From positions 26,113 to 90,112 of the IMG/VR virus record IMGVR_UViG_3300023223_001361: 64,000 nucleotides of DNA. One strand, 5' to 3'. The translations under genes were made by a program, and so were the position numbers. Source of the DNA: a virus. Positions 2,836 to 48,584 of the stretch are shown in pieces; the first letter of the stretch is position 1, and every line of letters starts with the position of its first letter. Under the pieces are notes generated by a model, which was given only the letters and a program-made list of their open reading frames with translations, was not told the origin of the DNA and made no database searches.

Positions 2836-4212
2836 ATGTATCTTAATGAAAACCTAAAAGAAAAATGGTCTGGGGTTCTTGATCACGAAGATTGTGAACC
2901 AATCAAAGATCCATATCGAAAGGGTGTTATAGCGCATCTACTTGAGAATACCGAAGAGGCAATCCGTCAGGATAATGAACAGTCTGGTTTTTTCACAGGA
3001 ACTCTTACTGAGGCACCTGCTAACCAATCTGGGGCGTTTCCAAATAATCCAAACCTCCAAGGTTATAATCCAGTTTTGATTTCACTTTTGCGCCGTGCAA
3101 TGCCAAATCTTATTGCATTTGATGTCGCTGGTGTTCAACCAATGTCTGGTCCTACTGGTCTTATTTTCGCGCTACGCTCTAAGTACACATCGCAAGGTGG
3201 AACTGAAGCCCTTTTTAACGAAGCTGATACTGAATTCTCTTCAGATGATACGCCTCCACATGAAGGAACTTCGGATGACTTCTTGCCACTTGCTGGAACA
3301 ACTATCGCTCCCGGTACGGATCTCGAATCCTTTGTTGGTGGTGGTGCTCAAAGTTACTCCCGTGGAGCTGGCTTGGATACCCTAGAAGGTGAATCTCTTG
3401 GTGATGGTTCTGCCCCTGAGTTTGCTGAAATGGCATTCAGTATCGACAAAGTAGTTGTTGAAGCAAAGACTCGCGCACTTAAAGCCGAGTACACAATGGA
3501 ACTTGCTCAAGACTTGAAAGCTATTCATAACTTAGATGCTGAAACTGAGCTTGCAAATATTCTATCAGCGGAATTGCTTTTCGAAATTAACCGAGAGCTT
3601 ATCCGTTCGATTTACTTGATTGCTGTTCCTGGTGCCCAAGAAGGCGATATCGCTTCTCCTGGAGTATTCGATCTTAATGCTGATGCTGATGGTCGTTGGT
3701 CTGTAGAGCGATGGAAAGGTCTTATGTATCAGCTCGAAAGAGATGCTAATGCTATTGCTAAGTCAACCCGTCGAGGACGTGGTAACTTCATGATTTGTTC
3801 ATCGAATGTTGCCTCTGCTCTGTCGATTGCTGGTTTACTTGCCTCTGCTACTGCACTCAAAGATAACTTGAGCCATGACGGTGATAACGGTAACACTTTC
3901 GTAGGTGTTCTTAATGGACGTATCAAGGTTTATGTAGATCCATATTCCGATACTGCTGGAAAAGATTACTACGTTATGGGATATCGTGGTTCATCTGCAA
4001 TGGATGCTGGACTTTTCTACTGCCCATACGTACCACTTCAAATGGTTCGTGCGGTTGGCGAAAATAGCTTCCAACCTAAAATCGGTTTCAAAACTCGTTA
4101 CGGAATGAGAGTAAATCCATTCTCCAATGCAACGGGTGATGCTGATGGTGTGTTGAGACTATCAAGCAACATTTACTACAGACGTGTCCAAGTAGATAAT
4201 ATTCTTGTATAA
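2836..4212 (+). CDS. gp23: major capsid protein gp23
   Basis: PVLISLLRRAMPNLIAFDVAGVQPMSGPTGLIFALRS, KTRALKAEYTMELAQDLKAIH, FQPKIGFKTRYGM. Confidence 0.99.
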   Translation: MYLNENLKEKWSGVLDHEDCEPIKDPYRKGVIAHLLENTEEAIRQDNEQSGFFTGTLTEAPANQSGAFPNNPNLQGYNPVLISLLRRAMPNLIAFDVAGVQPMSGPTGLIFALRSKYTSQGGTEALFNEADTEFSSDDTPPHEGTSDDFLPLAGTTIAPGTDLESFVGGGAQSYSRGAGLDTLEGESLGDGSAPEFAEMAFSIDKVVVEAKTRALKAEYTMELAQDLKAIHNLDAETELANILSAELLFEINRELIRSIYLIAVPGAQEGDIASPGVFDLNADADGRWSVERWKGLMYQLERDANAIAKSTRRGRGNFMICSSNVASALSIAGLLASATALKDNLSHDGDNGNTFVGVLNGRIKVYVDPYSDTAGKDYYVMGYRGSSAMDAGLFYCPYVPLQMVRAVGENSFQPKIGFKTRYGMRVNPFSNATGDADGVLRLSSNIYYRRVQVDNILV

Positions 4213-10783: not shown

Positions 10784-11329
10784 ATGGAAAAGAAAATTAA
10801 AAAAAATCATTATATAAACAATGAAAAATTTCTCAAAGAAATGGTTTCGTGGTTGGAAGATGTCAAAAAAGCTAAGAGGAAAGGTCAACCTAGACCGAAA
10901 GTTCCTGATTATATTGGCGAATGTTTGTTAGCTATTGCAACTAATCTATCATACAAACCCAACTTTATTAATTATCAGTATCGAGATGATATGGTGATGG
11001 ATGGAGTAGAAAATTGTCTTCAATATATTACTAATTTTGATCCAGAAAAATCTAGTAATCCTTTTTCATATTTTACACAGATATCTTATTGGGCATTTGT
11101 AAGGAGAATTGAACGAGAAAAAAAACAACTCTATGTAAAATTGAAATCAATTCAAGATAATATTATTCACGATGAAAAAGTAACAGTCACTCAATACGGA
11201 AGTGATCACGCAAATTCACAGATGGAGCAGTTTATACAACAGTTTGAAGAAAAGAAAAAAGCTAAGAAGAAAGTCAAAGAAAAGAAATCCAAGTCGGCCA
11301 TAACTGATCTTATCAACAGAGTTGATTGA
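10784..11329 (+). CDS. gp55: late transcription sigma factor gp55
   Basis: HYINNEKFL..YIGECLLAIATNLSYKPNFINY..DMVMDGVENC..NFDPEKSSNPFSYFTQI. Confidence 0.97.
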   Translation: MEKKIKKNHYINNEKFLKEMVSWLEDVKKAKRKGQPRPKVPDYIGECLLAIATNLSYKPNFINYQYRDDMVMDGVENCLQYITNFDPEKSSNPFSYFTQISYWAFVRRIEREKKQLYVKLKSIQDNIIHDEKVTVTQYGSDHANSQMEQFIQQFEEKKKAKKKVKEKKSKSAITDLINRVD

Positions 11330-18915: not shown

Positions 18916-19011
18916 ATGAAAAACGACAAAATATTCCCGATTTTTTTGGTGATTTTTGATGTGACAATAATTCTTTTTAATGTTGTTGCACTAGCAATAA
19001 CGGTTTATTGA
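18916..19011 (+). CDS. 31-aa hydrophobic membrane peptide
   Basis: RBS AGGGAGGA; MKNDKIFPIFLVIFDVTIILFNVVALAITVY. Confidence 0.55.
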   Translation: MKNDKIFPIFLVIFDVTIILFNVVALAITVY

Positions 19012-19013
19012 TA

Positions 19014-21203
19014 ATGTCTAAAGTTGATATATCAGTAAAAGATATTCTTGCTCAGCTTATGGCAACAGAAAAACTTTCGATTGAACATCGTTCTGGTGCT
19101 CATACTGCTGCTTTTGATTTAAAAAACAGAATTCTCATTTTGCCAATTTGGAAAGAAATGGATGACCATCTTTATAATATGTTGATAGGTCATGAAGTTG
19201 GTCATGCTCTTTATACTCCTCAAGATTACATTGAAGAAGTGAAGAAAAATGCTTCACTTAGTTCGTATCTCAATGTTGTTGAGGATGCTAGAATCGAAAA
19301 AATCATCAAAAATGATTTTCCAGGAATTCGACGATCTTTTAGAGAAGCTTACCAACAATTAAATAAGAGAGATTTCTTTGGTAGACAAAAAACAGGTAAT
19401 CTTAAGAAATATGATTTAATTGATCGAATCAATCTCCATTTCAAATTGAATTCTTACATCTCTGAAGAGATTGCTTTTACTGATGAAGAAAAGTTTTGGG
19501 TTGAAAAAGTGGATTCGTGTAAAACTTTTTCTGATGTTGTTAGAGTAGCAAAAGAACTTTTTAAATACCAAAAAGAACAAAACCAACAACAACAAAAAGC
19601 CAAAATTTCAGAAGATGGTGATGGAAAAATTGATTCAGGAACTATGGAAAAGGATAATTCTGAAGAAAATAGTTCCACTTCTGATAGTTCTGAAGAATTT
19701 CAAGATTCTGAAACCAATCAATCCAAAGCTGATCAGGATTCTGATGAAAAAGATAAGAATTTGCAAGATCCCTTTTCCGAAACAGATCAAAATCTTCAGG
19801 AAAATTTAAAAAATCTACGAGATGAATTTGCTGATGAATATGCCTATGTTGATTTTCCAAATCTCTCAAAGGAAGAAATTAGTAATTATATAATTCCTTT
19901 CCAGACAGTTCATAGACAAATTCGAGAGCATTACATTAAAGAATATGAAAGAAATCTTTCTTATACTGAATCTCATCGTGGAGAAAATTGTTGTTGCTTA
20001 AATGAACTTAAAGAGGCAGAAAATAGACTTTCTCAATTTAAATCGGAGAGTATTAAAGTTGTTAATTATCTTGTCAAAGAATTTGAAATGAAAAAAGCAG
20101 CACATATCCATGACAAAACGAGGATTTCTAAAACTGGCGTTATTGATATGAATAAACTTTTTTCTTACAAATATAATGACGATATTTTTAAAAGAAGTTC
20201 AGTTGTTTCCACAGGAAAAAATCATGGTATTTTAATTTTTTTTGATATGTCAAATTCGATGTCTTCTCATATGGCAGGAACTATAGAACAAATGATAAAT
20301 CTCGTTTTGTTCTGTAAGAAAGTTCAAATCCCTTTTGAAGTTTATGGTTTTACGACTTGCGATAATAATTCTCGAATTGATTCAGCCCCAAACGTACCAA
20401 AGAAGGAAATTATTTTAGGAAACCATTTTACATTAAGGAATTATTTTTCTCATCGAATGAATTCTGGACAATTTCAAAATGCTTTAGTCAACATGATGGC
20501 AATTTTACATTATTATGAAATCGCAAAGGAGTATCCCACAAAAAAATATAGTTTACCTACTTCTGAACAATTACACTATACTCCATTGAATCAAACAATA
20601 ATTATTGCTACTCATCTTGTTCCACTCATTCAAAGGAAATATAATATTGAGATAATGAATTGTATCTTCATTACTGATGGATGTCATTATACAGGTGGTC
20701 AAGATTTGAGATTTATAGATTATGATGGTTTTTCGAAATCTTTATGTCAATATCAGAAAATCTTCATCAAAAAAGATAATAAACAATATGAATCGAATTC
20801 GCGGGAAGATAATTTTACAAAAATCTATTTTGAAATATTAAAAAAATCTTGTCAAACAAATAATATTGGCTTCTTTATCCTCCAATCTGGTAAAAGTGGA
20901 TTTGAATCTGTGATTTCCCAAAAAGATAATAATCTCCAAAATAAAAGTAAAACAGAAAAGAAAGATATCATTAATAAGTTATATGATCAATATCAAAATG
21001 ATGGTTTCTTTAATGTTCAAACTGCTGGCTATGATGATTATTTTGTTGTTCCGGGTGGTGATCAGTTAAGAACTCATCAAGGTTATATCCCAGTCAAGCC
21101 AGGAGCTTCACGACTCAAGATAACGAAAGCATTCAAAAAGAGTCAAGCTATTATGATAACTAGTAGAGTTATGCTTTCCAAATTTATCGACAGGATAGTA
21201 TAA
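19014..21203 (+). CDS. HExxH peptidase-like + vWA domain protein (CobT-like partner of CobS)
   Basis: GHEVGHALYTP, NVVEDARIE, acidic linker, DMSNSMS MIDAS-like motif, FITDG. Confidence 0.85.
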   Translation: MSKVDISVKDILAQLMATEKLSIEHRSGAHTAAFDLKNRILILPIWKEMDDHLYNMLIGHEVGHALYTPQDYIEEVKKNASLSSYLNVVEDARIEKIIKNDFPGIRRSFREAYQQLNKRDFFGRQKTGNLKKYDLIDRINLHFKLNSYISEEIAFTDEEKFWVEKVDSCKTFSDVVRVAKELFKYQKEQNQQQQKAKISEDGDGKIDSGTMEKDNSEENSSTSDSSEEFQDSETNQSKADQDSDEKDKNLQDPFSETDQNLQENLKNLRDEFADEYAYVDFPNLSKEEISNYIIPFQTVHRQIREHYIKEYERNLSYTESHRGENCCCLNELKEAENRLSQFKSESIKVVNYLVKEFEMKKAAHIHDKTRISKTGVIDMNKLFSYKYNDDIFKRSSVVSTGKNHGILIFFDMSNSMSSHMAGTIEQMINLVLFCKKVQIPFEVYGFTTCDNNSRIDSAPNVPKKEIILGNHFTLRNYFSHRMNSGQFQNALVNMMAILHYYEIAKEYPTKKYSLPTSEQLHYTPLNQTIIIATHLVPLIQRKYNIEIMNCIFITDGCHYTGGQDLRFIDYDGFSKSLCQYQKIFIKKDNKQYESNSREDNFTKIYFEILKKSCQTNNIGFFILQSGKSGFESVISQKDNNLQNKSKTEKKDIINKLYDQYQNDGFFNVQTAGYDDYFVVPGGDQLRTHQGYIPVKPGASRLKITKAFKKSQAIMITSRVMLSKFIDRIV

Positions 21204-39479: not shown

Positions 39480-40862
39480 ATGGTTGATCGTATCGAAATC
39501 CTTATTCTCAGCTCATTATTTTTTAATGAAGACTATATCAGAAAAGTTTTACCTTTCATCAAACCGGAATATTTTTCTGAAAGAATAGAATCTCTAATTT
39601 TTGAAAAGTGTTTTAATTTCATTACAAAATATAATTCTCTTCCCACTAAAGAAGCTATTATCATTCAAATGACTTCAGGTGAAGATGAAATCAGCGATAA
39701 AGAATACCAAGCTGCTATTGATTTAATTTCTTCTCTCAAAAAGAATAAAGAAGTTACAATGGATTGGATGCTTGATCAAACAGAACAGTTTTGTCAAGAT
39801 CAAGCATTGCATAATGCTGTAATGCAAACTATCAAGATTGCTGGTGGTAAGAGTAAAAACATATCCAAAGGTGCAATACCAGAATTAATGAAAGAAGCTC
39901 TTTCGGTATCTTTTGATCCAAATATTGGTCATTCTTATCTAGCCGACTTTGAAAAAAGATTTGATTGGTATCATTCAGAAGAAAGAAAAATCCCATTTGA
40001 TATAAAATTTCTCAATAAGATTACTGGTGGTGGACTCCCATTAAAGACTTTAACTGTTATTCTTGCTGGAACTGCTGTTGGTAAATCATTAGCGATGTGT
40101 CATTTTGCAGCATCAAATTTAATGGCTGGGTATAACGTATTGTATATAACACTTGAAATGTCTGAAGAAAGGACAGGAGAAAGAATAGACGCTAATCTTT
40201 TAAATTTACCGATAGAGAATTTGGATGAGGTTTCTAAAATAATTTTCGAAAGTAAAATAAATAAGCTAGTTAATAAAACAAATGGTGAACTGATCATTAA
40301 AGAGTATCCTACTGCTATGGCATCAACGACACATTTCCGTCATTTATTGAGTGAACTGCATTTAAAGAAAAATTTTGTTCCCGATATCATTTATATTGAT
40401 TATTTGAATATTGCTTCTAGTGCTCGTTTGAAACCTGGTAGAGCAAGCAGTTATGAATATGTTAAAGCTATTGCTGAAGAGTTGAGAGGTTTGGCTGTAG
40501 AACAAAATTTACCTATAGTGACAGCTACACAAACTAATCGAGCTGGTTTCTCATCCAGCGACTTAGATGCAACAGATACTAGTGAAAGTTTTGGTGTGCC
40601 AATGACAGCAGATTTGATGTTTGCTCTTATTACTAACGAAAATCTTGAGAAAATGAATAAACTTCAGATACAACAGGTAAAAAACAGGTATAATGCTCTT
40701 ACCAAGAATAAAAGATTCTTAATTGGAATAGATTTAGCAAAAATGAGATTATATGACTTAGAGGAGCAAGCTCAGGAGACTTTAAGTGAATCAGGTCAAG
40801 AACCAGAGACAACTACCAAAAGAAAAGACAAACGTGGTGTTTTTGACGACATAGAAATCTAA
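39480..40862 (+). CDS. gp41: replicative helicase gp41 (DnaB-like)
   Basis: AGTAVGKS, YITLEM, IDYLNI, TATQTNR, DTSESFG, KNRY. Confidence 0.97.
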   Translation: MVDRIEILILSSLFFNEDYIRKVLPFIKPEYFSERIESLIFEKCFNFITKYNSLPTKEAIIIQMTSGEDEISDKEYQAAIDLISSLKKNKEVTMDWMLDQTEQFCQDQALHNAVMQTIKIAGGKSKNISKGAIPELMKEALSVSFDPNIGHSYLADFEKRFDWYHSEERKIPFDIKFLNKITGGGLPLKTLTVILAGTAVGKSLAMCHFAASNLMAGYNVLYITLEMSEERTGERIDANLLNLPIENLDEVSKIIFESKINKLVNKTNGELIIKEYPTAMASTTHFRHLLSELHLKKNFVPDIIYIDYLNIASSARLKPGRASSYEYVKAIAEELRGLAVEQNLPIVTATQTNRAGFSSSDLDATDTSESFGVPMTADLMFALITNENLEKMNKLQIQQVKNRYNALTKNKRFLIGIDLAKMRLYDLEEQAQETLSESGQEPETTTKRKDKRGVFDDIEI

Positions 40863-40888
40863 CCCAAACTGAGGAAATCCTTCAGCTT

Positions 40889-40896
40889 TATAAATA
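40889..40896 (+). promoter_or_regulatory. late promoter heading the internal-protein operon
   Basis: Perfect TATAAATA after a small hairpin (CTGAGGAAATCCTTCAG). Confidence 0.75.
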
Positions 40897-40901
40897 AGAA
40901 G

Positions 40902-41963
40902 ATGACATTGTATGTTGTCGATTGTTATTGTTTAAAAGAAATGGCAGATATTTCAGGTACAAGGACATCAGGCTTACCAGCCTGGGATTATTACATAAAA
41001 AATAATCCTGATTGGAAAAAATTGGAACTACGGATAGAAAATAAGAAATCTACTTATATTTTCCAAATTAAAAATAAAGGGTTAATTCCAGGTAAAAAGC
41101 TCTATAAAGCAAAAACAAAACTTCAGCTCTTGGATAATAAAATCAAAAAAGTTGGAAGAATTTCAATGGCTAACGTTCAAATTGGGGATGAAAAAGGTTT
41201 TATCTCCATTGCTACAATTCGTAAACCCTCTAAAGCTGGAGAAAGAGGAACTACATTTGATGAAAAAGTGGCTTTCAAAGATTTAAAAAAGCTTATTAAG
41301 AAATTTAAGACTCCTATGGTACCTATAAGTCTTGGTGTTAAGAAAGAAGGAAAAGTAATGTTTACCATTCATGATGCTATAGATGTCCAGACATTCAAGG
41401 GAAATCCGAAAGCTGATTTTGCTATTGTATCTAAAAGTAATAAAATGCCTTTATTCATTTCCCATAAAAAAGCTGGTGGTCCTAAAGCATTTCAACAATT
41501 TTCAGGTGTAAGCTTGAAAGCTGGATTAAGAATTTCAGAGCATAAAGAAGTAAAGAGTTTTTTGAGGAAGTTAGTAAGTTTTATGGATATTGAAAAAAAG
41601 AGGTTAATAAAACCTGTATTTTCAATAATTAAAGATCCGAAGCTGAAAAATTTAGCTGTATTTGGATCGGAATATAAAAAAGGTTCCAAGGATTTTAGTG
41701 AAGAATATGTTCAGATCATTGGTCAGGGGAATCCGATTTTGACTTCAGGTAAGAAAAAGTCTTCTTTTACCTTAGAATGGTCGGAACATTTTGCACCTGC
41801 CGGGGAAATAAAATCATTTAAGGGAGATTTAGAGATTGTTTTTCTTGCTACTTTTAGAGCAGGCAGAAAATTTCATATAGATGGGAAAACATATACTGGA
41901 GCAAGAATAATGATTGCTCCATTGGCTCTCGCGAAAGGAAGATCTGATTTGACTGAGATATAA
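40902..41963 (+). CDS. basic protein with PD-(D/E)xK-like nuclease motif
   Basis: E..PKADFAIV...FISHKK..FQQFSG; start may be ATG 40941. Confidence 0.55.
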   Translation: MTLYVVDCYCLKEMADISGTRTSGLPAWDYYIKNNPDWKKLELRIENKKSTYIFQIKNKGLIPGKKLYKAKTKLQLLDNKIKKVGRISMANVQIGDEKGFISIATIRKPSKAGERGTTFDEKVAFKDLKKLIKKFKTPMVPISLGVKKEGKVMFTIHDAIDVQTFKGNPKADFAIVSKSNKMPLFISHKKAGGPKAFQQFSGVSLKAGLRISEHKEVKSFLRKLVSFMDIEKKRLIKPVFSIIKDPKLKNLAVFGSEYKKGSKDFSEEYVQIIGQGNPILTSGKKKSSFTLEWSEHFAPAGEIKSFKGDLEIVFLATFRAGRKFHIDGKTYTGARIMIAPLALAKGRSDLTEI

Positions 41964-41964
41964 A

Positions 41965-43131
41965 ATGAAAAGTTTTAAAATATTTTTTACGGAAGTAAAA
42001 AAGAATACACATTTAGAGCATATCGAAGATTGGATATTGAATGACGGTGCCGTTGGTGGACGTGATGCTATTTTGATTCTCCAAGATATTGTTGATGATA
42101 TAGCTTCTGGAGAGAAATCTACTCAAATTACGGTAAAATGGGATGGTAGTCCAGCTATAATTTGTGGAACAGATCCCGAAACAAAAAACTTTTTTGTTGG
42201 AACGAAATCTGTTTTTTCGAAGAAAAAACCAAAACTCAATTTCACTTCGGAAGATGTGAGAAGGAACTATTCCAATGAAAATCTACAAGAAATTTTAATA
42301 TTATCTTTAGAGAATTTAAAAGACTTAAATATCAAAGGTGTGTTACAAGGGGATTTGATGTTCACAAAAGATATGTTAAGAACAACAAAAGTACATGGAG
42401 AAGAACTCCTTACTTTTAAACCAAATACGATAACTTATGGTGTGGCAACAAATCTCCCATTAGCAGTTCAAATGAAAGAAGCACAAATAGGAATAATTTT
42501 CCATACAGCATATAGTGGTTCTGGTACTCTTTGTGATTTAAAAGCGAATTTTGAACCAAAAGTTTCTTCCCTCAAAAAAGTTCCAAATGTTTGGTTCGAT
42601 GATGCATCAATAACAAATATTGATAAGTCTTTGTTTTCTCTAGAAGAAAGAAAAAATATTCAATCAATATTGAGAAAAGCGGAAAATCAATTAGCATCTG
42701 CTTCTAAGTTTGCTAATGAGTTATCTATTAATGGTGGAATTCTGAATCACATTAAAAGATTTATAAATGAAAGAATTAGATCGGGGAAGTTAACAGAAAC
42801 AAAAGATATTCCAGAAATAATTGATTTTATTGAAAATCAGTTTCGTTCTGAACTTGGAAAAATTAAGGCTACGACTTTTCTTAAAAATGAACAAGAAGGT
42901 TTTGCAGCATTGATTGAATATCAAACAAGCATAATTCAAGCAAAATTAGAAATATTAAATAAGTTAAATGGTCTAGCAAACATTAATTCATTTAATGAAA
43001 TATCATCAGGAGATTTACAAGTTACTCCACCAGAAGGTTTTGTTTCTATTTCATCTAAGTTGGGTAAAGTCGTTAAATTAGTTAATCGATTGGAATTCAG
43101 TTTCAGAAATTTTTCAAAGGCTGAAGGATAA
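41965..43131 (+). CDS. DUF6267-like protein with ATP-dependent ligase motifs and capsid-targeting leader
   Basis: MKSFKIFFTE; KNTHLEHIED; TVKWDG (motif I), QGDLMF, EGFV, VKLVNR. Confidence 0.75.
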   Translation: MKSFKIFFTEVKKNTHLEHIEDWILNDGAVGGRDAILILQDIVDDIASGEKSTQITVKWDGSPAIICGTDPETKNFFVGTKSVFSKKKPKLNFTSEDVRRNYSNENLQEILILSLENLKDLNIKGVLQGDLMFTKDMLRTTKVHGEELLTFKPNTITYGVATNLPLAVQMKEAQIGIIFHTAYSGSGTLCDLKANFEPKVSSLKKVPNVWFDDASITNIDKSLFSLEERKNIQSILRKAENQLASASKFANELSINGGILNHIKRFINERIRSGKLTETKDIPEIIDFIENQFRSELGKIKATTFLKNEQEGFAALIEYQTSIIQAKLEILNKLNGLANINSFNEISSGDLQVTPPEGFVSISSKLGKVVKLVNRLEFSFRNFSKAEG

Positions 43132-43135
43132 TATA

Positions 43136-43996
43136 ATGAAATTCAAACAGCTAATAAAAGAAGGTGGAAATGCTGTTTCTAATACTTCTCGAATTAATAA
43201 AATAAATGTCAACCCTACTTTGGAATCTTTGTATCGAATTCTTTTGCCAAAAATGAATTTGACAAAGAAAGCTATTAGTATTTTAGGAACCACTGGCAAA
43301 AGGAAAACTTCTGGAGATATTGATATAGCTGTAGATACTCAAGCTTTGATGAAAGGAAGTAAAATAAGTAATATAGATGATTTGTATGATGTAATGGTTT
43401 CCGCTTCAAAATCTGTTAGTAAAGAAGTAAAAGATACAAGAAGTTTAGGAACTATTTCTTTTTCTTTTCCAATCACAAATACAGATGGAAAACAAGCTGG
43501 TAAGTTGGTACAAATAGATTTGTTTCTTGTTAGTAATTTATCTTGGGCTAATTGGATATACTTTGGACCAAGAGAAGAAGAGAGTAAGATAAAGGGATTT
43601 TATAGGAATATTCTTCTTGGTCAAGTCGCTAAACATGTTTCTCTTAAGATTAGAAAAAAAGAAAATGGGGAAAATATAGAACAAGAAAGATTTTTGTTTA
43701 TATTTTCTCAAGGATTAATGAAAGCGATTCAAAGTCGTAGAGGCAAAAAGAAGCTTTTGAAGAATTTTAAAAGCATAAACAGAGAATTAATATCAACGAA
43801 TCCAAATAAAATTGTAAAACTGTTATTTGGTCCAAAAGCCAAACCAGACAATTTGTTAACATTCGAACAAATGTTTGCGGCTGTACAATCGAATGGTTTT
43901 CCGAAGAAATCAAAACGAAATGTTATTTTTTCCGAAACCAAAAAAGTTTTACTAAAGTTGAATGTGCCTATTCCTAATGAATTGGAGCCATTCTAA
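43136..43996 (+). CDS. Pol-beta-superfamily nucleotidyltransferase with capsid-targeting leader
   Basis: MKFKQLIKE-GGN; LGTTG..SGDIDIAVD; VQIDL. Confidence 0.75.
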   Translation: MKFKQLIKEGGNAVSNTSRINKINVNPTLESLYRILLPKMNLTKKAISILGTTGKRKTSGDIDIAVDTQALMKGSKISNIDDLYDVMVSASKSVSKEVKDTRSLGTISFSFPITNTDGKQAGKLVQIDLFLVSNLSWANWIYFGPREEESKIKGFYRNILLGQVAKHVSLKIRKKENGENIEQERFLFIFSQGLMKAIQSRRGKKKLLKNFKSINRELISTNPNKIVKLLFGPKAKPDNLLTFEQMFAAVQSNGFPKKSKRNVIFSETKKVLLKLNVPIPNELEPF

Positions 43997-44907
43997 TGAA
44001 GAGTTTTAAATTTTTTATGAAAGAATCTCTTATTGATCCTGTCCAGGACACCCTTTCGAAACAGATATTCGACAAGACAGATACTCCGAATCCCATAATG
44101 AAAAAGCGCGTTAAGGGTTTCATTATGCGTGGTATTGGAGATTTAGAAGATATCGCAAGAATACTTGATATTCAGATAGTAGGAAGTATTCTCACTCGAC
44201 AGTTTGCACTCAATGCCGATATAGATGTCAATATTTTATTTAAACCATTTGGTGATGCACAAACTGTGCTCAAAAGACTTAGAAAAAGAGCTGCTAAGAT
44301 TAATGGTGCGAAAGTTACAGGAACCAAACATTCAGTGAATTATTTTAGTGTAGTGAGCCAAGAGGTTTTTGATAGAGCTAGTGAATTAACCGATGCTGCT
44401 TATGATTTAAATACAGATAAATGGCTCAAGAAAGCGAAAGCTCAACCATTTGATCCAGATAAGTATATTGAGGAGTTTGATAAAGCTGCGTCTAAGCTTG
44501 ATATTATGAAAGATGAACTAGTCAGAGACATTGCAGACTTTAAGCAATTACAGTCTTTAAAACCAATTGAATTATCCAAGCTTTCCCAAAAAGTTAACGG
44601 AAAAGTTCAAGAACTCGAAAAAGATATGAAAGACATCATCGACACTCATCAATTAGCAAAACAAGTTAGAAGAGATATTTTCTCTAAACCCCTTTCACCA
44701 AAAGAAATAAAAGATTATGGCAGTAAGAACGCATTACCAGAGAATGTAATCTTTAAACTATTAGAGAGATTTTTATATTGGAATTTAGCATCCAAGCTAA
44801 AAGAAATAATTGGAGATGATAAGAAATTATCGAAGCCGGAAGCGAAGAAATTGAAGAACGTAAAGGTGCCGCCAGATGCGAAAGGAAGACTTAAAAGCTC
44901 ACGTTAA
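43996..44907 (+). CDS. second Pol-beta-superfamily nucleotidyltransferase with capsid-targeting leader
   Basis: MKSFKFFMKE; IVGSI...ADIDVNI. Confidence 0.7.
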   Translation: MKSFKFFMKESLIDPVQDTLSKQIFDKTDTPNPIMKKRVKGFIMRGIGDLEDIARILDIQIVGSILTRQFALNADIDVNILFKPFGDAQTVLKRLRKRAAKINGAKVTGTKHSVNYFSVVSQEVFDRASELTDAAYDLNTDKWLKKAKAQPFDPDKYIEEFDKAASKLDIMKDELVRDIADFKQLQSLKPIELSKLSQKVNGKVQELEKDMKDIIDTHQLAKQVRRDIFSKPLSPKEIKDYGSKNALPENVIFKLLERFLYWNLASKLKEIIGDDKKLSKPEAKKLKNVKVPPDAKGRLKSSR

Positions 44908-45559
44908 GAGTAGTTATACAGTAACTTGGAAAGGTGATAGATTTGATTATTCTTATCCAGATGATAAAGGTAAATCTGTGCCTTGGTTTGCTGTGATCGA
45001 AGATGATAAGATTACATTTGGTAAAGGCACTGGGGATGAAATAGTCTACGAAATTGGAGACCTAGATATACTCGATAAAAGACTGAAAAATCATGATGTG
45101 CCAAAGAAGAAAAAGTTGGAATCATTTAAGAAATTTGTCGCAACAGAAGAAACGCTTGATAGTTTTGCTGCTAAAGCTTGGAAAGCTGGTGATCCCAAGC
45201 TGAAAAAAGATATTCAAAAGATTCTTTCGGAAAAGGAAGGGTATAAAGTAACAACTTCTATCTCTACTTTGGGCGGTGCTGATAGACCTTCTTTTAGTGT
45301 TAGTTATTGGAATATTAATGATGCTAAAGGAAATATTAAACAAAATTCAACAGCCCATACTATTTTGATTATGCACACTGATAAAAATAACAAAGTCTGG
45401 AAGTGGGAGATGGCTACTGCCCACTTCAAACAAAAACAGAATGGTATTAAATTCCGTGCCCTTCGATCAACCAAGTCAATGGATGATGCTAATGCCAAAC
45501 TGCTTGCATGGATTAAGAAAAATAAGCCTGATTTAGATGCTTTAAGGGATGGAAAATAA
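44876..45559 (+). CDS. hypothetical two-domain protein with internal leader-like motif
   Basis: Internal LESFKKFVATEE. Confidence 0.55.
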   Translation: MRKEDLKAHVKSSYTVTWKGDRFDYSYPDDKGKSVPWFAVIEDDKITFGKGTGDEIVYEIGDLDILDKRLKNHDVPKKKKLESFKKFVATEETLDSFAAKAWKAGDPKLKKDIQKILSEKEGYKVTTSISTLGGADRPSFSVSYWNINDAKGNIKQNSTAHTILIMHTDKNNKVWKWEMATAHFKQKQNGIKFRALRSTKSMDDANAKLLAWIKKNKPDLDALRDGK

Positions 45560-46134
45560 TGAAATCTTTTAAGTATTTTGTGGAAAAAGTAATAGGAACT
45601 GGAAGTAAATCATTAGGTGTTGAGCGGGATGATATGCCCCAAATAAAAGATCCTGAAAAATTTGTTTCCTTCTTAAAAAGAAATGGTTTAAAGGTTTCTG
45701 AAGATCATATAAAGGCAAGTGATATTAAATTTACCCAAAAACACTTAAAGACAGAAAAAATAGATGATATCTTAAAACAGAAAGGAGAAATTAATTGTTC
45801 TGATTTTCTTGTTTCTTCAGATAATCATATATTGGATGGGCATCATAGATTAGCAGCTCAAAAGAGAAAAGATGAAAATAGGGTAATATGTGTTCAGAAG
45901 GTAAATGCAAAAATGCCTGTTGTTTTAAAATTTGCAAATGACTTTTCTGGAGCAAAATTTGTTGGTGTTGATGAAGTCATCGATTTAAAGAAAGGTTCTG
46001 AACAGGATGCAATTAAGAGAGCTATTGATGATTTCAAAGATAGTGATGCTCCACAGTTCAAAGGTAAGAGTAAAGAGAAACGCATACAAATGGCAGTAGC
46101 CGCAGTTAAAGCAGTAAGAAGAAGAAATGGCTAG
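45559..46134 (+). CDS. ParB/Srx-like domain protein with capsid-targeting leader
   Basis: MKSFKYFVE; RDDMPQI; LVSSDNHILDGHHR; C-terminal DFKDSDAPQFKGKSKEKR. Confidence 0.75.
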   Translation: MKSFKYFVEKVIGTGSKSLGVERDDMPQIKDPEKFVSFLKRNGLKVSEDHIKASDIKFTQKHLKTEKIDDILKQKGEINCSDFLVSSDNHILDGHHRLAAQKRKDENRVICVQKVNAKMPVVLKFANDFSGAKFVGVDEVIDLKKGSEQDAIKRAIDDFKDSDAPQFKGKSKEKRIQMAVAAVKAVRRRNG

Positions 46135-47143
46135 AAAAACTTTTCAAGATTTATTGGTAGAGCAGCAAGGTAAAACTGTTGTATTTGCATTTGGTAGATT
46201 TAATCCACCAACAATAGGTCATGAAAAATTGTTGGATAAGGTAGTTCAGCTTGCTCAGCGAAATAGAGCTGAAGCTAGAATTTATCCTAGTTTATCTCAA
46301 GATAACAAAAAAAATCCATTATCTGTTAAAGATAGGGTTAAGTTCCTAAAAATGATGACTAAATTTCCTAAGATGATAGTCAATAATAAAGTATTGAAAA
46401 CACCTGGAGCTGCTTTAGAAGCTCTTGCACAAGAGGGGTTTGAAACTGTTGTTATAGTAGTTGGTGGGGATAGAGTAAAAGATCTAAATAGATCTTTAGG
46501 TCCATTTTCAGAAAAGTTAGGTATTAAAAACTTTCAAGTTATTAGTGCTGGGATAAGAGATTTAGATGTCGAAGGAGCTACAGGTATGAGTTCTTCAAAG
46601 ATGAGAGCTGCTGCATCTGATGGTAATTTCACTTTATTCGAAAAAGGTATCTCTAAAAAGATTAATGTGAAGTTTAAGAAGCAAATATTTCAAAAGGTGA
46701 GAAAAAGTTTAGGTTTAAAAAAGATTAATGAAGAAATTCAAAGACCAAATATAGTAAAACTGAATGAAGTTGATTTTTGTTACTTTAATAAAGAAACGAC
46801 TTTTAAATTTACTGACTCTTTGGGTTTTACTGTTTCAAACATGAAAATTTCTGAAGTGAAATTATGTGATCCAAATATAGATTATGAGAAAGCATCAAAA
46901 ATAGCTCAAACAGCTAATAGAGCATGGCTTGGTAATATATTTCATATTAGCGAAGATAATTTTCTTTATGGAGATTTGGAAAGATTTGTTGCTTTATTAA
47001 GCAGAGATCCTAAAGCAATCATCAGAGTTAGAAGAATCAAAGGAACTATTCAAGAGATTTTTCAAAGTGCTAATAATTATTCAAACGAGGTATCAAGTAA
47101 ATTAAACTGTCAATTTGAAGAGGTTATTAATGAAAACATTTAA
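46127..47143 (+). CDS. HIGH-family nucleotidyl (cytidylyl) transferase + degenerate ParB-like domain
   Basis: FGRFNPPTIGHEKL, VVGGDR, GMSSSKMR; leader RKTFQDLLVE. Confidence 0.85.
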   Translation: MARKTFQDLLVEQQGKTVVFAFGRFNPPTIGHEKLLDKVVQLAQRNRAEARIYPSLSQDNKKNPLSVKDRVKFLKMMTKFPKMIVNNKVLKTPGAALEALAQEGFETVVIVVGGDRVKDLNRSLGPFSEKLGIKNFQVISAGIRDLDVEGATGMSSSKMRAAASDGNFTLFEKGISKKINVKFKKQIFQKVRKSLGLKKINEEIQRPNIVKLNEVDFCYFNKETTFKFTDSLGFTVSNMKISEVKLCDPNIDYEKASKIAQTANRAWLGNIFHISEDNFLYGDLERFVALLSRDPKAIIRVRRIKGTIQEIFQSANNYSNEVSSKLNCQFEEVINENI

Positions 47144-47336
47144 GACTTTCGCTGAAGGCGAAAACACAGATCGAGTAAAAATCAAACAAGATAAAGAAAA
47201 AGGAGCTTTACAACGTCGTCAAGATGATGAAAAAGATAAAGCATCACAGGATGACTTTGATGTTGATCAAGCGAAAAAACAAAGAGAAAGAGAACAAAAG
47301 AAAAGAGAAAGTGATAGAGAAAAAGCTCTTAAATAG
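47130..47336 (+). CDS. highly charged small protein with capsid-targeting leader
   Basis: MKTFKTFAE; RBS GAGG. Confidence 0.6.
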   Translation: MKTFKTFAEGENTDRVKIKQDKEKGALQRRQDDEKDKASQDDFDVDQAKKQREREQKKRESDREKALK

Positions 47337-47443
47337 TAATTTTGGAGCCAGTATTTAGGCAAGAGTCAAAATTTGCTTGAAAAAGTGAATTTTTTGATAG
47401 TCTTAAAGTTTTTTTGGACATTTGAGTTTTGAGGATATAAATA

Positions 47444-47638
47444 ATGCCTTTTTATGAATATAGACGCAAAGATGGAACAATTTTTGAGATAGAACAGAAG
47501 ATAACAGATGACAAATTAACTGTGTGCCCAGAGACAGGTCAGAAATGTAGAAAGGTTATTTCAAAAACCGGTGCTCCTATATTTAACAAGGGATGTGGTG
47601 GCTTTTATTCTTGCGATTATAAAAAGAAAGGCAAATAA
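47444..47638 (+). CDS. FmdB-family zinc-ribbon-like protein
   Basis: MPFYEY...FEIEQKITD..LTVCPE...GGFY..DY. Confidence 0.75.
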   Translation: MPFYEYRRKDGTIFEIEQKITDDKLTVCPETGQKCRKVISKTGAPIFNKGCGGFYSCDYKKKGK

Positions 47639-48400
47639 ATGTGTTTAATTGCTGTTAAATATATTCCTGAGCAACAATCATGGGTTGGTGTCAAGAACAG
47701 AGATAGAGTTGCAAAGCCGGTAATACGAATTCGCAAAAGCTTTCGACGTGGTATGGAACGACTATATATGTGGGATGATAAGACAAAATACACTGAAGGT
47801 ATTAATGAATTTGGTGTTGCTATTTTGTCTGCTGGTATGGATTCAGAAAGAGATACAATTGATGGGCTTGCTATAAGAACAGCATTATTTGAACAGACCG
47901 TAGAAGGTGCTGTTCAGAAAATTGTAGATTTAAAAGTAAGAGGAAGAACATTTGTTTTCTCAAAAGATATAGCATGGCAAGTTGGAATAGAAAAAGGTAA
48001 TGGTAAAGATTTTATGATTGCAGATGTAGAAATGAGTAGACAAGAACATCATGTTTTTATTTCAGTTGATGATGCTTTTCAAGAGCACAAAAGATGGCGC
48101 ACTGCAATGAAAGAAACACAATTGGCTAGAAGTGCAATGGAATTATTTGATGGTATGTCATCTACAGATGATGAGAATCCACAAGATAATCCATTAATTG
48201 TTACCGATAAAAGAAAAGCAATGAAAACTACGGGTCAAGTTATGATTCTGCCTTCAGAGATGACTATGCATTATAGAGCTATGTGGGGTGATGTTCGTTT
48301 CAGCTTAGACAAATTAAATTCCCCGATTGAGAAAACATTTTTTGAAATTGTGTCGACTAGAAAATTAATAAGTTTCGGAGAAGAAAGTGCAAACTCTTAA
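47639..48400 (+). CDS. Ntn-hydrolase-like protein (N-terminal Cys)
   Basis: MCLIAV...KNRDR...EGINEFGVAI. Confidence 0.65.
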   Translation: MCLIAVKYIPEQQSWVGVKNRDRVAKPVIRIRKSFRRGMERLYMWDDKTKYTEGINEFGVAILSAGMDSERDTIDGLAIRTALFEQTVEGAVQKIVDLKVRGRTFVFSKDIAWQVGIEKGNGKDFMIADVEMSRQEHHVFISVDDAFQEHKRWRTAMKETQLARSAMELFDGMSSTDDENPQDNPLIVTDKRKAMKTTGQVMILPSEMTMHYRAMWGDVRFSLDKLNSPIEKTFFEIVSTRKLISFGEESANS

Positions 48401-48584
48401 ATATTTTTTGCGAGAAGCAAAAAACAAATCACAAGCTTTGAAAACACTTCAAGATAAAAAGAGCGATGCTCTTGCTAAATTGGGGGCTATAGATACTCTG
48501 AAATCTCTCAAAGTATCAGATGGTGAAATAAATAGGGCCTTGAGAAAGGCTGGGATTAAAAACGCAGACGAGCTATTGAAATAG
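48387..48584 (+). CDS. small protein with capsid-targeting-like leader
   Basis: MQTLKYFLRE. Confidence 0.55.
   Translation: MQTLKYFLREAKNKSQALKTLQDKKSDALAKLGAIDTLKSLKVSDGEINRALRKAGIKNADELLK

Follow-up and report, generated by a model that had tools for sequence, protein, structure and literature searches.

The present analysis concerns a 64,000-nucleotide stretch of DNA (hereafter the window; bases 26113-90112 of the 160,399-bp genome IMGVR_UViG_3300023223_001361) from a marine T4-like phage, whose genome is a single contig with terminal repeats and 34% G+C. We found that eight units lying between positions 41965 and 48584 of the window open with a common peptide leader, M-K-(S/T)-F-K-x-F-h-x-E (h, hydrophobic residue), which resembles the capsid-targeting sequence (CTS) at the N-terminus of T4 internal proteins. 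We propose, with a probability of roughly 0.65, that the block is transcribed late, as one unit coding for enzyme-type 'internal proteins': the tags would load the enzymes into the prohead and be removed there by a protease, and the enzymes would reach the host together with the DNA.

The near-identical, Glu-ending leaders that had been read in these open reading frames (ORFs) by a first-pass annotation were all recovered, namely MKSFKIFFTE at 41965, MKFKQLIKE at 43136, MKSFKFFMKE at 43996, MKSFKYFVE at 45559, MKTFKTFAE at 47130 and MQTLKYFLRE at 48387, together with the leader at 46127. In a six-frame translation of the whole genome, a loose regular expression for the leader opened long ORFs only at 41965, 43136, 43996, 45559, 46127 and 47130; the leader at 48387 escaped it because the start codon there is GTG. 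A tight expression matched seven of 258 crude gene starts, five of these seven in the cluster, and the comparison of seven N-terminal leaders with two outside matches gave a Fisher p of ~3e-10, which is approximate, since visual inspection supplied two of the seven leaders. A position-specific scoring matrix (PSSM) trained solely on database leaders of the DUF6267 family, one of the tagged families, revealed no further long ORF in 190,547 sequence windows of the genome. When the same matrix was applied to 80 related loci, gathered by alignment query (a single-protein scan of viral contigs gave one locus only), 17 N-termini of other, unrelated families scored at least 10, against 0.11 expected, and none of the 51 helicases of these loci was tagged. 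Thus, scanned by regular expression and by PSSM, the leader motif proved specific to the cluster within the genome and, by the PSSM, enriched in relatives. Moreover, the codons of the leaders vary from gene to gene, which argues that the conservation is on the peptide level and does not stem from a recent DNA duplication.

The correspondence with the T4 tag concerns the positions that matter for its function. T4 internal proteins IPII and IPIII begin, in the T4 genome sequence, with MKTYQEFIAE, and mutational mapping of the T4 CTS assigned targeting mainly to residues 4 and 7 and processing to residues 8 and 10, the protease gp21 cutting after Glu and removing N-terminal propeptides of 7-65 residues (PMC9026906). 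The eight leaders carry an aromatic residue at position 4 and Phe or Leu at position 7, with a register shift of one or two residues in 43136 and 46127; a hydrophobic residue stands at position 8 and Glu at 9-10, and the ending is hydrophobic-x-Glu throughout, with one exception, which is hydrophobic-x-x-Glu. In both AlphaFold models the leader is the sole low-confidence segment at the N-terminus. As in the T4 CTS system, an N-terminal tag of about ten residues with the same key positions and the same ending is shared by diverse cargoes, and is accompanied by a gp21-type protease, a gp22-type core and a late promoter motif; T4 Alt provides the precedent for an injected enzyme (PMC9026906). The two systems differ in that the cargoes described here, known from sequence alone, are for the most part nucleic-acid or nucleotide enzymes of 20-42 kDa and bear no relation to the T4 internal proteins, and in that their locus lies between genes 41 and 61, whereas the T4 ip loci lie elsewhere.

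The marine leader PSSM has its best match in T4 (NC_000866; score 19.5) at the start of gene 61.1 (18966-19130, - strand; locus L088), which encodes a 54-residue hypothetical protein between genes 61 and 41, the very interval in which marine phages have the tagged cluster. The gene 61.1 product may possibly be an unrecognised CTS-bearing small internal protein; a literature search on gp61.1 yielded nothing useful.

The tag also behaves as a separable unit, which we regard as the most compelling of the new arguments for a CTS. In three cargo families (DUF6267, Pol X-like and nuclease-like), untagged homologues begin exactly where the Glu of the tagged members ends, indicating that the tag is a discrete, removable module and that its removal at the Glu would leave a mature end identical to that of the untagged proteins. 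In DUF6267 the leader precedes the conserved core, and 50 of the 68 scorable genes in related loci have a leader of 9-11 residues; most of the remaining ones have a variant extension with the same ending, and in three there is truly no tag. Tagged members of the Pol X-like family show an invariant GGNAV right after the leader, and it is at this motif that two untagged members start; among the nuclease-like proteins, four carry the leader fused ahead of the usual N-terminus. The DUF6267 homologue of cyanophage S-PM2 (locus L003, 7992-9771) is untagged and apparently split, as its tblastn match covers an ORF of 192 residues and runs into the beginning of the gene that follows, annotated as a cytidyltransferase.

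The machinery that such a tag would need is encoded by the same phage. Nearly all genes of the window lie on the + strand, and the head genes stand in T4 order, with a prohead-core protein, an S77 prohead protease, a T4-type scaffold and gp23. The T4 gp21-type protease (696-1352, + strand; PF03420, E 6e-40) is the presumed processing enzyme and the T4-type scaffolding core protein (1425-2795, + strand; PF25623, E 4e-62) the presumed docking partner of the tag, so that both the gp21-type and the gp22-type components that characterise CTS-loaded internal proteins are present. The phage's own substrates of this protease bear short N-terminal segments that end in hydrophobic-x-Glu. The N-terminal half of the scaffold is long, highly acidic and internally repeated, and the conserved T4_CASP domain follows it. 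The gp23 major capsid protein (458 residues; 2836-4212, + strand) has a 9-residue N-terminal segment that ends in Leu-Lys-Glu and is followed by a conserved Lys-Trp, and the capsid protein of S-CREM2 is similar; judging from these N-termini, the propeptide cut from the capsid protein of these phages may perhaps be very short, compared with the 65 residues of T4 gp23.

The block may be transcribed late: both a late promoter motif and a gp55-type late sigma factor (10784-11329, + strand; phrog_234, E 9e-61) are present. The perfect sequence that had been noted ahead of the operon, the T4-type late promoter motif TATAAATA, was found at 40889-40896 (+ strand), 44 nt upstream of the corrected start of the first gene (40941) and shortly after the gp41-type helicase gene (39480-40862) that lies immediately upstream of the tagged block. 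The motif occurs three times in the window, against 9.0 expected from shuffles, and 14 times genome-wide, and every copy in the window directly precedes an ORF: the first operon gene, a zinc-ribbon ORF within the cluster and a tail-fibre-like gene. The copy inside the cluster (47436-47443, + strand) abuts an ATG and hence may serve the next gene instead. A short imperfect hairpin at 40866-40888, between the helicase stop codon and the promoter motif, may mark the end of the upstream transcription unit. Within the block we found no excess of sigma-70-like promoters and no terminator on the + strand, and its successive genes are joined by junctions of 1, 4, -1, -32, -1, -8, -14, 107, 0, -14 and 10 nt. 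The synteny around the cluster (gp43-uvsX-gp41 ... gp61-nrdA) is kept in HTVC008M, S-PM2, Syn9 and S-SCSM1.

The proteins of the related clusters have been met in virions. Mass spectrometry of S-SCSM1 virions detected the products of five consecutive cluster genes, including the NMNAT-like ORF91 (PMC9602691), and ORF154 of S-CREM2 is likewise a virion protein (PMC10665884). We found that S-SCSM1 ORF91, which shares 39% identity with the 46127 product over 190 residues, carries a canonical leader behind an ATAAATA motif, and that S-CREM2 ORF154 has the same leader and the same promoter motif upstream. The NMNAT-like or cytidylyltransferase virion proteins of S-SCSM1, S-CBWM1 and S-CREM2 are homologous to 46127, belong to the same gp41-gp61 cluster and share its leader and promoter motif; the papers on these phages report their detection only, with neither a targeting sequence, nor processing, nor the ligase-fold and Pol X-like neighbours as a tagged set. 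The authors of the proteomes noted that such proteins are often detected in cyanophage virions and offered no mechanism (PMC9602691; PMC10665884). The first-pass annotation had stated that no functional description of the set was known. This has to be softened, as the NMNAT-like protein has already been reported to be associated with virions (PMC9602691; PMC10665884) and a 2022 review foresaw that T4-like phages in general would use the CTS as a loading device (PMC9026906). Our literature search found no paper joining a CTS or a prohead protease to these cyanophage proteins. A search for 'cytitidyltransferase' returned nothing useful.

Given the above, we postulate the following course of events. 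The block would be transcribed from TATAAATA at 40889 under the gp55-type sigma factor of the phage, and its eight tagged products would each carry an N-terminal propeptide of 9-12 residues acting like the T4 CTS. During prohead assembly the propeptide would dock the protein on the gp22-type scaffolding core, and the gp21-type protease would then cut after the terminal Glu of the hydrophobic-x-Glu ending. The mature proteins, mostly basic, would remain in the head with the DNA and exit with it at infection. The capsid-targeting function that the first-pass annotation had read into the leaders is well supported, though indirectly, by the mapped CTS positions, by the protease, scaffold and sigma factor, by the modularity of the tag and by the tagged homologues in cyanophage virions, whereas cleavage, packaging and injection in this particular phage are what we infer from them.

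Several observations weigh against our proposal. The marine leader PSSM gives the T4 IPII/IPIII tag a score of only 1.1, so that the likeness to the T4 tag rests on the pattern and on the mapped positions and not on a trained model. In the related loci, outside the two main families, the loose regular expression had 19 matches against ~16 expected, i.e., no enrichment, and it is because this result was not significant that the independently trained PSSM was used in its place. The nearby head genes of the window have no promoter motif in their proximal 60 nt. Finally, a warning is given in both proteome papers: late proteins, where abundant, may end up in virion preparations by co-purification (PMC9602691; PMC10665884).

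The last of these points bears on the alternative that fares best, though we consider it quite unlikely, namely that the leader is an uncleaved N-terminal helix or a translation-start feature of late cytoplasmic enzymes (acting, e.g., in DNA maturation before packaging) that are not packaged at all. Co-purifying contaminants could account for the proteomic detections, AT-rich genomes favour Met-Lys starts with A/U-rich early codons, of which AAA and TTT are seen here, and the first operon gene and two others have no tag. However, codon bias cannot explain the conserved spacing of the aromatic residue, the Phe, the hydrophobic residue and the Glu, highly expressed genes such as that of the capsid protein lack the leader, and three families show gain or loss of the whole tag precisely at the Glu; moreover, the S-SCSM1 virion proteome contains not one but five adjacent cluster proteins. 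It might also be argued that the proteins are indeed packaged by means of the tag, yet serve mainly as basic, DNA-condensing or core-filling internal proteins whose enzyme folds are idle after injection. This would be in line with the isoelectric points of 9-10 of most mature forms, with the two tagged products that are small, charged and devoid of an enzyme fold, and with the basic character and abundance of the T4 internal proteins (PMC9026906). We hold it to be very unlikely, since residues of catalytic type (the KxDG of DUF6267, the Asp triad of the Pol X-like enzyme and the HIGH motif of 46127) do not vary across the families, which argues for selection on enzyme activity, and since T4 Alt is a precedent for an injected enzyme. 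That the N-terminal likeness is due to chance, or is a functionless relic of duplicated 5' gene ends, is scarcely credible and largely refuted by the genome-wide specificity, the PSSM enrichment, the differing leader codons and the conservation of the tag across thousands of homologues, even if UvsX-type N-termini can mimic the pattern and the loose expression showed no enrichment outside the two families.

What the tagged proteins would bring along can be judged from the genes of the block, all of which lie on the + strand. The first operon gene (40941-41963) encodes an untagged restriction-endonuclease-like protein (PADLOC REase_II, E 1e-19). Almost all of the 68 homologues of ORF 40902 begin with MA.LSGK, aligned to residue 14 of the ORF, indicating that the gene starts at the ATG at 40941 and not at 40902, and that there is no tag here. 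The 352-residue gene that HTVC008M has ahead of its DUF6267 gene showed no detectable homology to ORF 40902.

The next gene (41965-43131; leader, residues 1-10) encodes the DUF6267 protein, for which a KxDG ligase-fold had been claimed. Our results are in line with this claim: the KxDG is invariant, with K58, D60 and G61 of motif I unchanged in 24 diverse sequences, and the model suggests an RNA-ligase-type fold, at modest Z, with Rnl2- and REL1-type adenylyltransferase domains as the best matches. We found no PDB sequence match for this protein, and hhalign of its profile against T4 Rnl2 and Rnl1 gave a probability of ~0.1, i.e., no sequence-profile similarity. DUF6267 is found in 467 phage records, and its database homologues number more than 7,000; our literature search retrieved no paper that mentions it.

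The two nucleotidyltransferases that had been assigned jointly to the Pol-beta type can now be told apart. The product of 43136-43996 (leader, residues 1-9, then GGNAV) is a minimal Pol X-like nucleotidyltransferase with the palm plus thumb fold of Pol X enzymes, in which S59, G60, D61, D63 and D128 are invariant in 24 sequences (GS...SGD-x-D plus a downstream Asp); by motif and spacing, we take its three catalytic carboxylates to be equivalent to the Pol beta triad, and the protein is predicted to be a small Pol X-like DNA polymerase. The product of 43996-44907 (leader, residues 1-10) is an NTP_transf_2-type nucleotidyltransferase (Atlas score of 0.97 to viral NTP_transf_2 clusters), and its structural matches include fusions with CTP_transf_like, PAP2 and kinase domains.

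ORF 44876, in which an internal leader had been noticed, consists of two modules joined in frame. Its small N-terminal module (44876-45115) overlaps the previous gene by 32 nt, is in frame with the next unit and matches, with residues 4-78, the C-terminal end of P0222, a homologue that stops where the next leader begins. The second, leader-bearing module (45116-45559), which brings the tagged units to eight, begins at an in-frame TTG, and its stand-alone homologues (130-150 aa) all begin with a canonical leader aligned to this TTG. The leader thus exists, while the term 'internal' does not hold, as it is the true N-terminus of the stand-alone homologues. From the sequence, ORF 44876 may encode a polyprotein that carries a tag and a cut site in its interior, or it may comprise two genes, the second starting at TTG 45116.

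The ParB/Srx domain proposed for the product of 45559-46134 (phrog_2859; leader, residues 1-9) can be retained only as a lead. The protein contains a DGHHR motif and reaches an Atlas score of 0.85 with a TM of ~0.6; ParB_N occurs in 12-14% of the Atlas cluster members, and there is no Pfam match. It also matches the C-terminal part of phrog_3041, a 'cytidyltransferase'. The HIGH nucleotidyltransferase had been correctly recognised: the product of 46127-47143 (leader, residues 1-12) is a HIGH-motif nucleotidylyltransferase of the CTP_transf_like type (PF01467, E 1e-9), with no PDB sequence match. This superfamily domain alone passes its cut-off; the nearest family is NMN/NaMN adenylyltransferase, and the NMNAT label was rejected because TIGR00482 (NMN/NaMN adenylyltransferase) scores 23.1 bits against a cut-off of 112.

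The remaining genes are short or of no known family. A small, highly charged protein with a leader (47130-47336) has a mature form of 59 residues, and a leader-bearing small basic protein whose gene starts with GTG (48387-48584) has a mature form of 55 residues with a pI of 9.9; these are the two tagged products without an enzyme fold. Between them lie two untagged genes. One encodes an FmdB-type zinc-ribbon protein (47444-47638; PF09723, E 4e-11), and FmdB-type zinc-ribbon ORFs, starting with MPFYEY and MPVYEY, directly follow two of the 14 genomic copies of TATAAATA (47436-47638 and genome position 132105). The other (47639-48400) encodes a 253-residue protein with no family match, which starts with Met-Cys followed by hydrophobic residues, as in N-terminal-nucleophile hydrolases.

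In other phages the cargo modules are fused to one another in several ways: DUF6267 with the HIGH enzyme, the HIGH enzyme with the ParB-like module, and, in one related locus (L085), the HIGH enzyme with the 47639 protein; the 43996-type enzyme is fused elsewhere with the HIGH enzyme (five related loci), with PAP2 phosphatases and with zeta-type kinases. These fusions lead us to think that the cargoes act on one substrate class, and the combination of a nuclease-like gene with a Pol X-like and a ligase-fold enzyme points to the processing of nucleic-acid ends. Tentatively, and at clearly less than even odds, we suggest that the enzymes process such ends (gap filling, nick sealing) before phage gene expression, the target being either the incoming genome or RNA of host or phage. 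We further speculate, though in this fuller form we deem it unlikely, that marine T4-like phages may inject a head-borne gap-filling and nick-sealing kit comprising a Pol X-like polymerase, a ligase-fold enzyme and accessory nucleotidyltransferases, which would mend or protect incoming DNA (e.g., sunlight-damaged or defence-nicked DNA), or repair cleaved RNA, before phage gene expression.

Two known systems invite comparison. In African swine fever virus, Pol X, a minimal family-X polymerase, and a DNA ligase are part of a viral base-excision repair set that is carried in the virion. However, this Pol X shows no detectable sequence relationship to the proteins described here, and the ligase-fold partner in our block appears, from its model, to resemble RNA ligases more than DNA ligases. 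The RNA repair set of T4 (Rnl1, Rnl2 and Pnkp) is similar in that the DUF6267 model best matches domains of the Rnl2 and REL1 type and that other phages have kinase and phosphatase domains fused to the associated modules; it differs in that DUF6267 has no sequence similarity to Rnl1 or Rnl2 and that the block contains neither a kinase nor a phosphatase. Neither tagging nor packaging is known for Rnl1, Rnl2 and Pnkp.

In the ocean, T4-like myoviruses rank among the most abundant viruses. Should the repair function be borne out, this would be the first description of a bacteriophage that carries nucleic-acid repair machinery in its virion, and such a kit would be widespread, given the thousands of marine homologues of DUF6267. 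As with the T4 CTS, the tag is also a possible loading handle for the engineering of marine phages. If the tag does load enzymes, the predicted mature N-termini would be directly testable in existing mass-spectrometry data, the puzzling 'non-structural' proteins in cyanophage virion proteomes would gain a mechanism, and the tagged proteins would represent a large, hitherto unrecognised class of injected phage enzymes.

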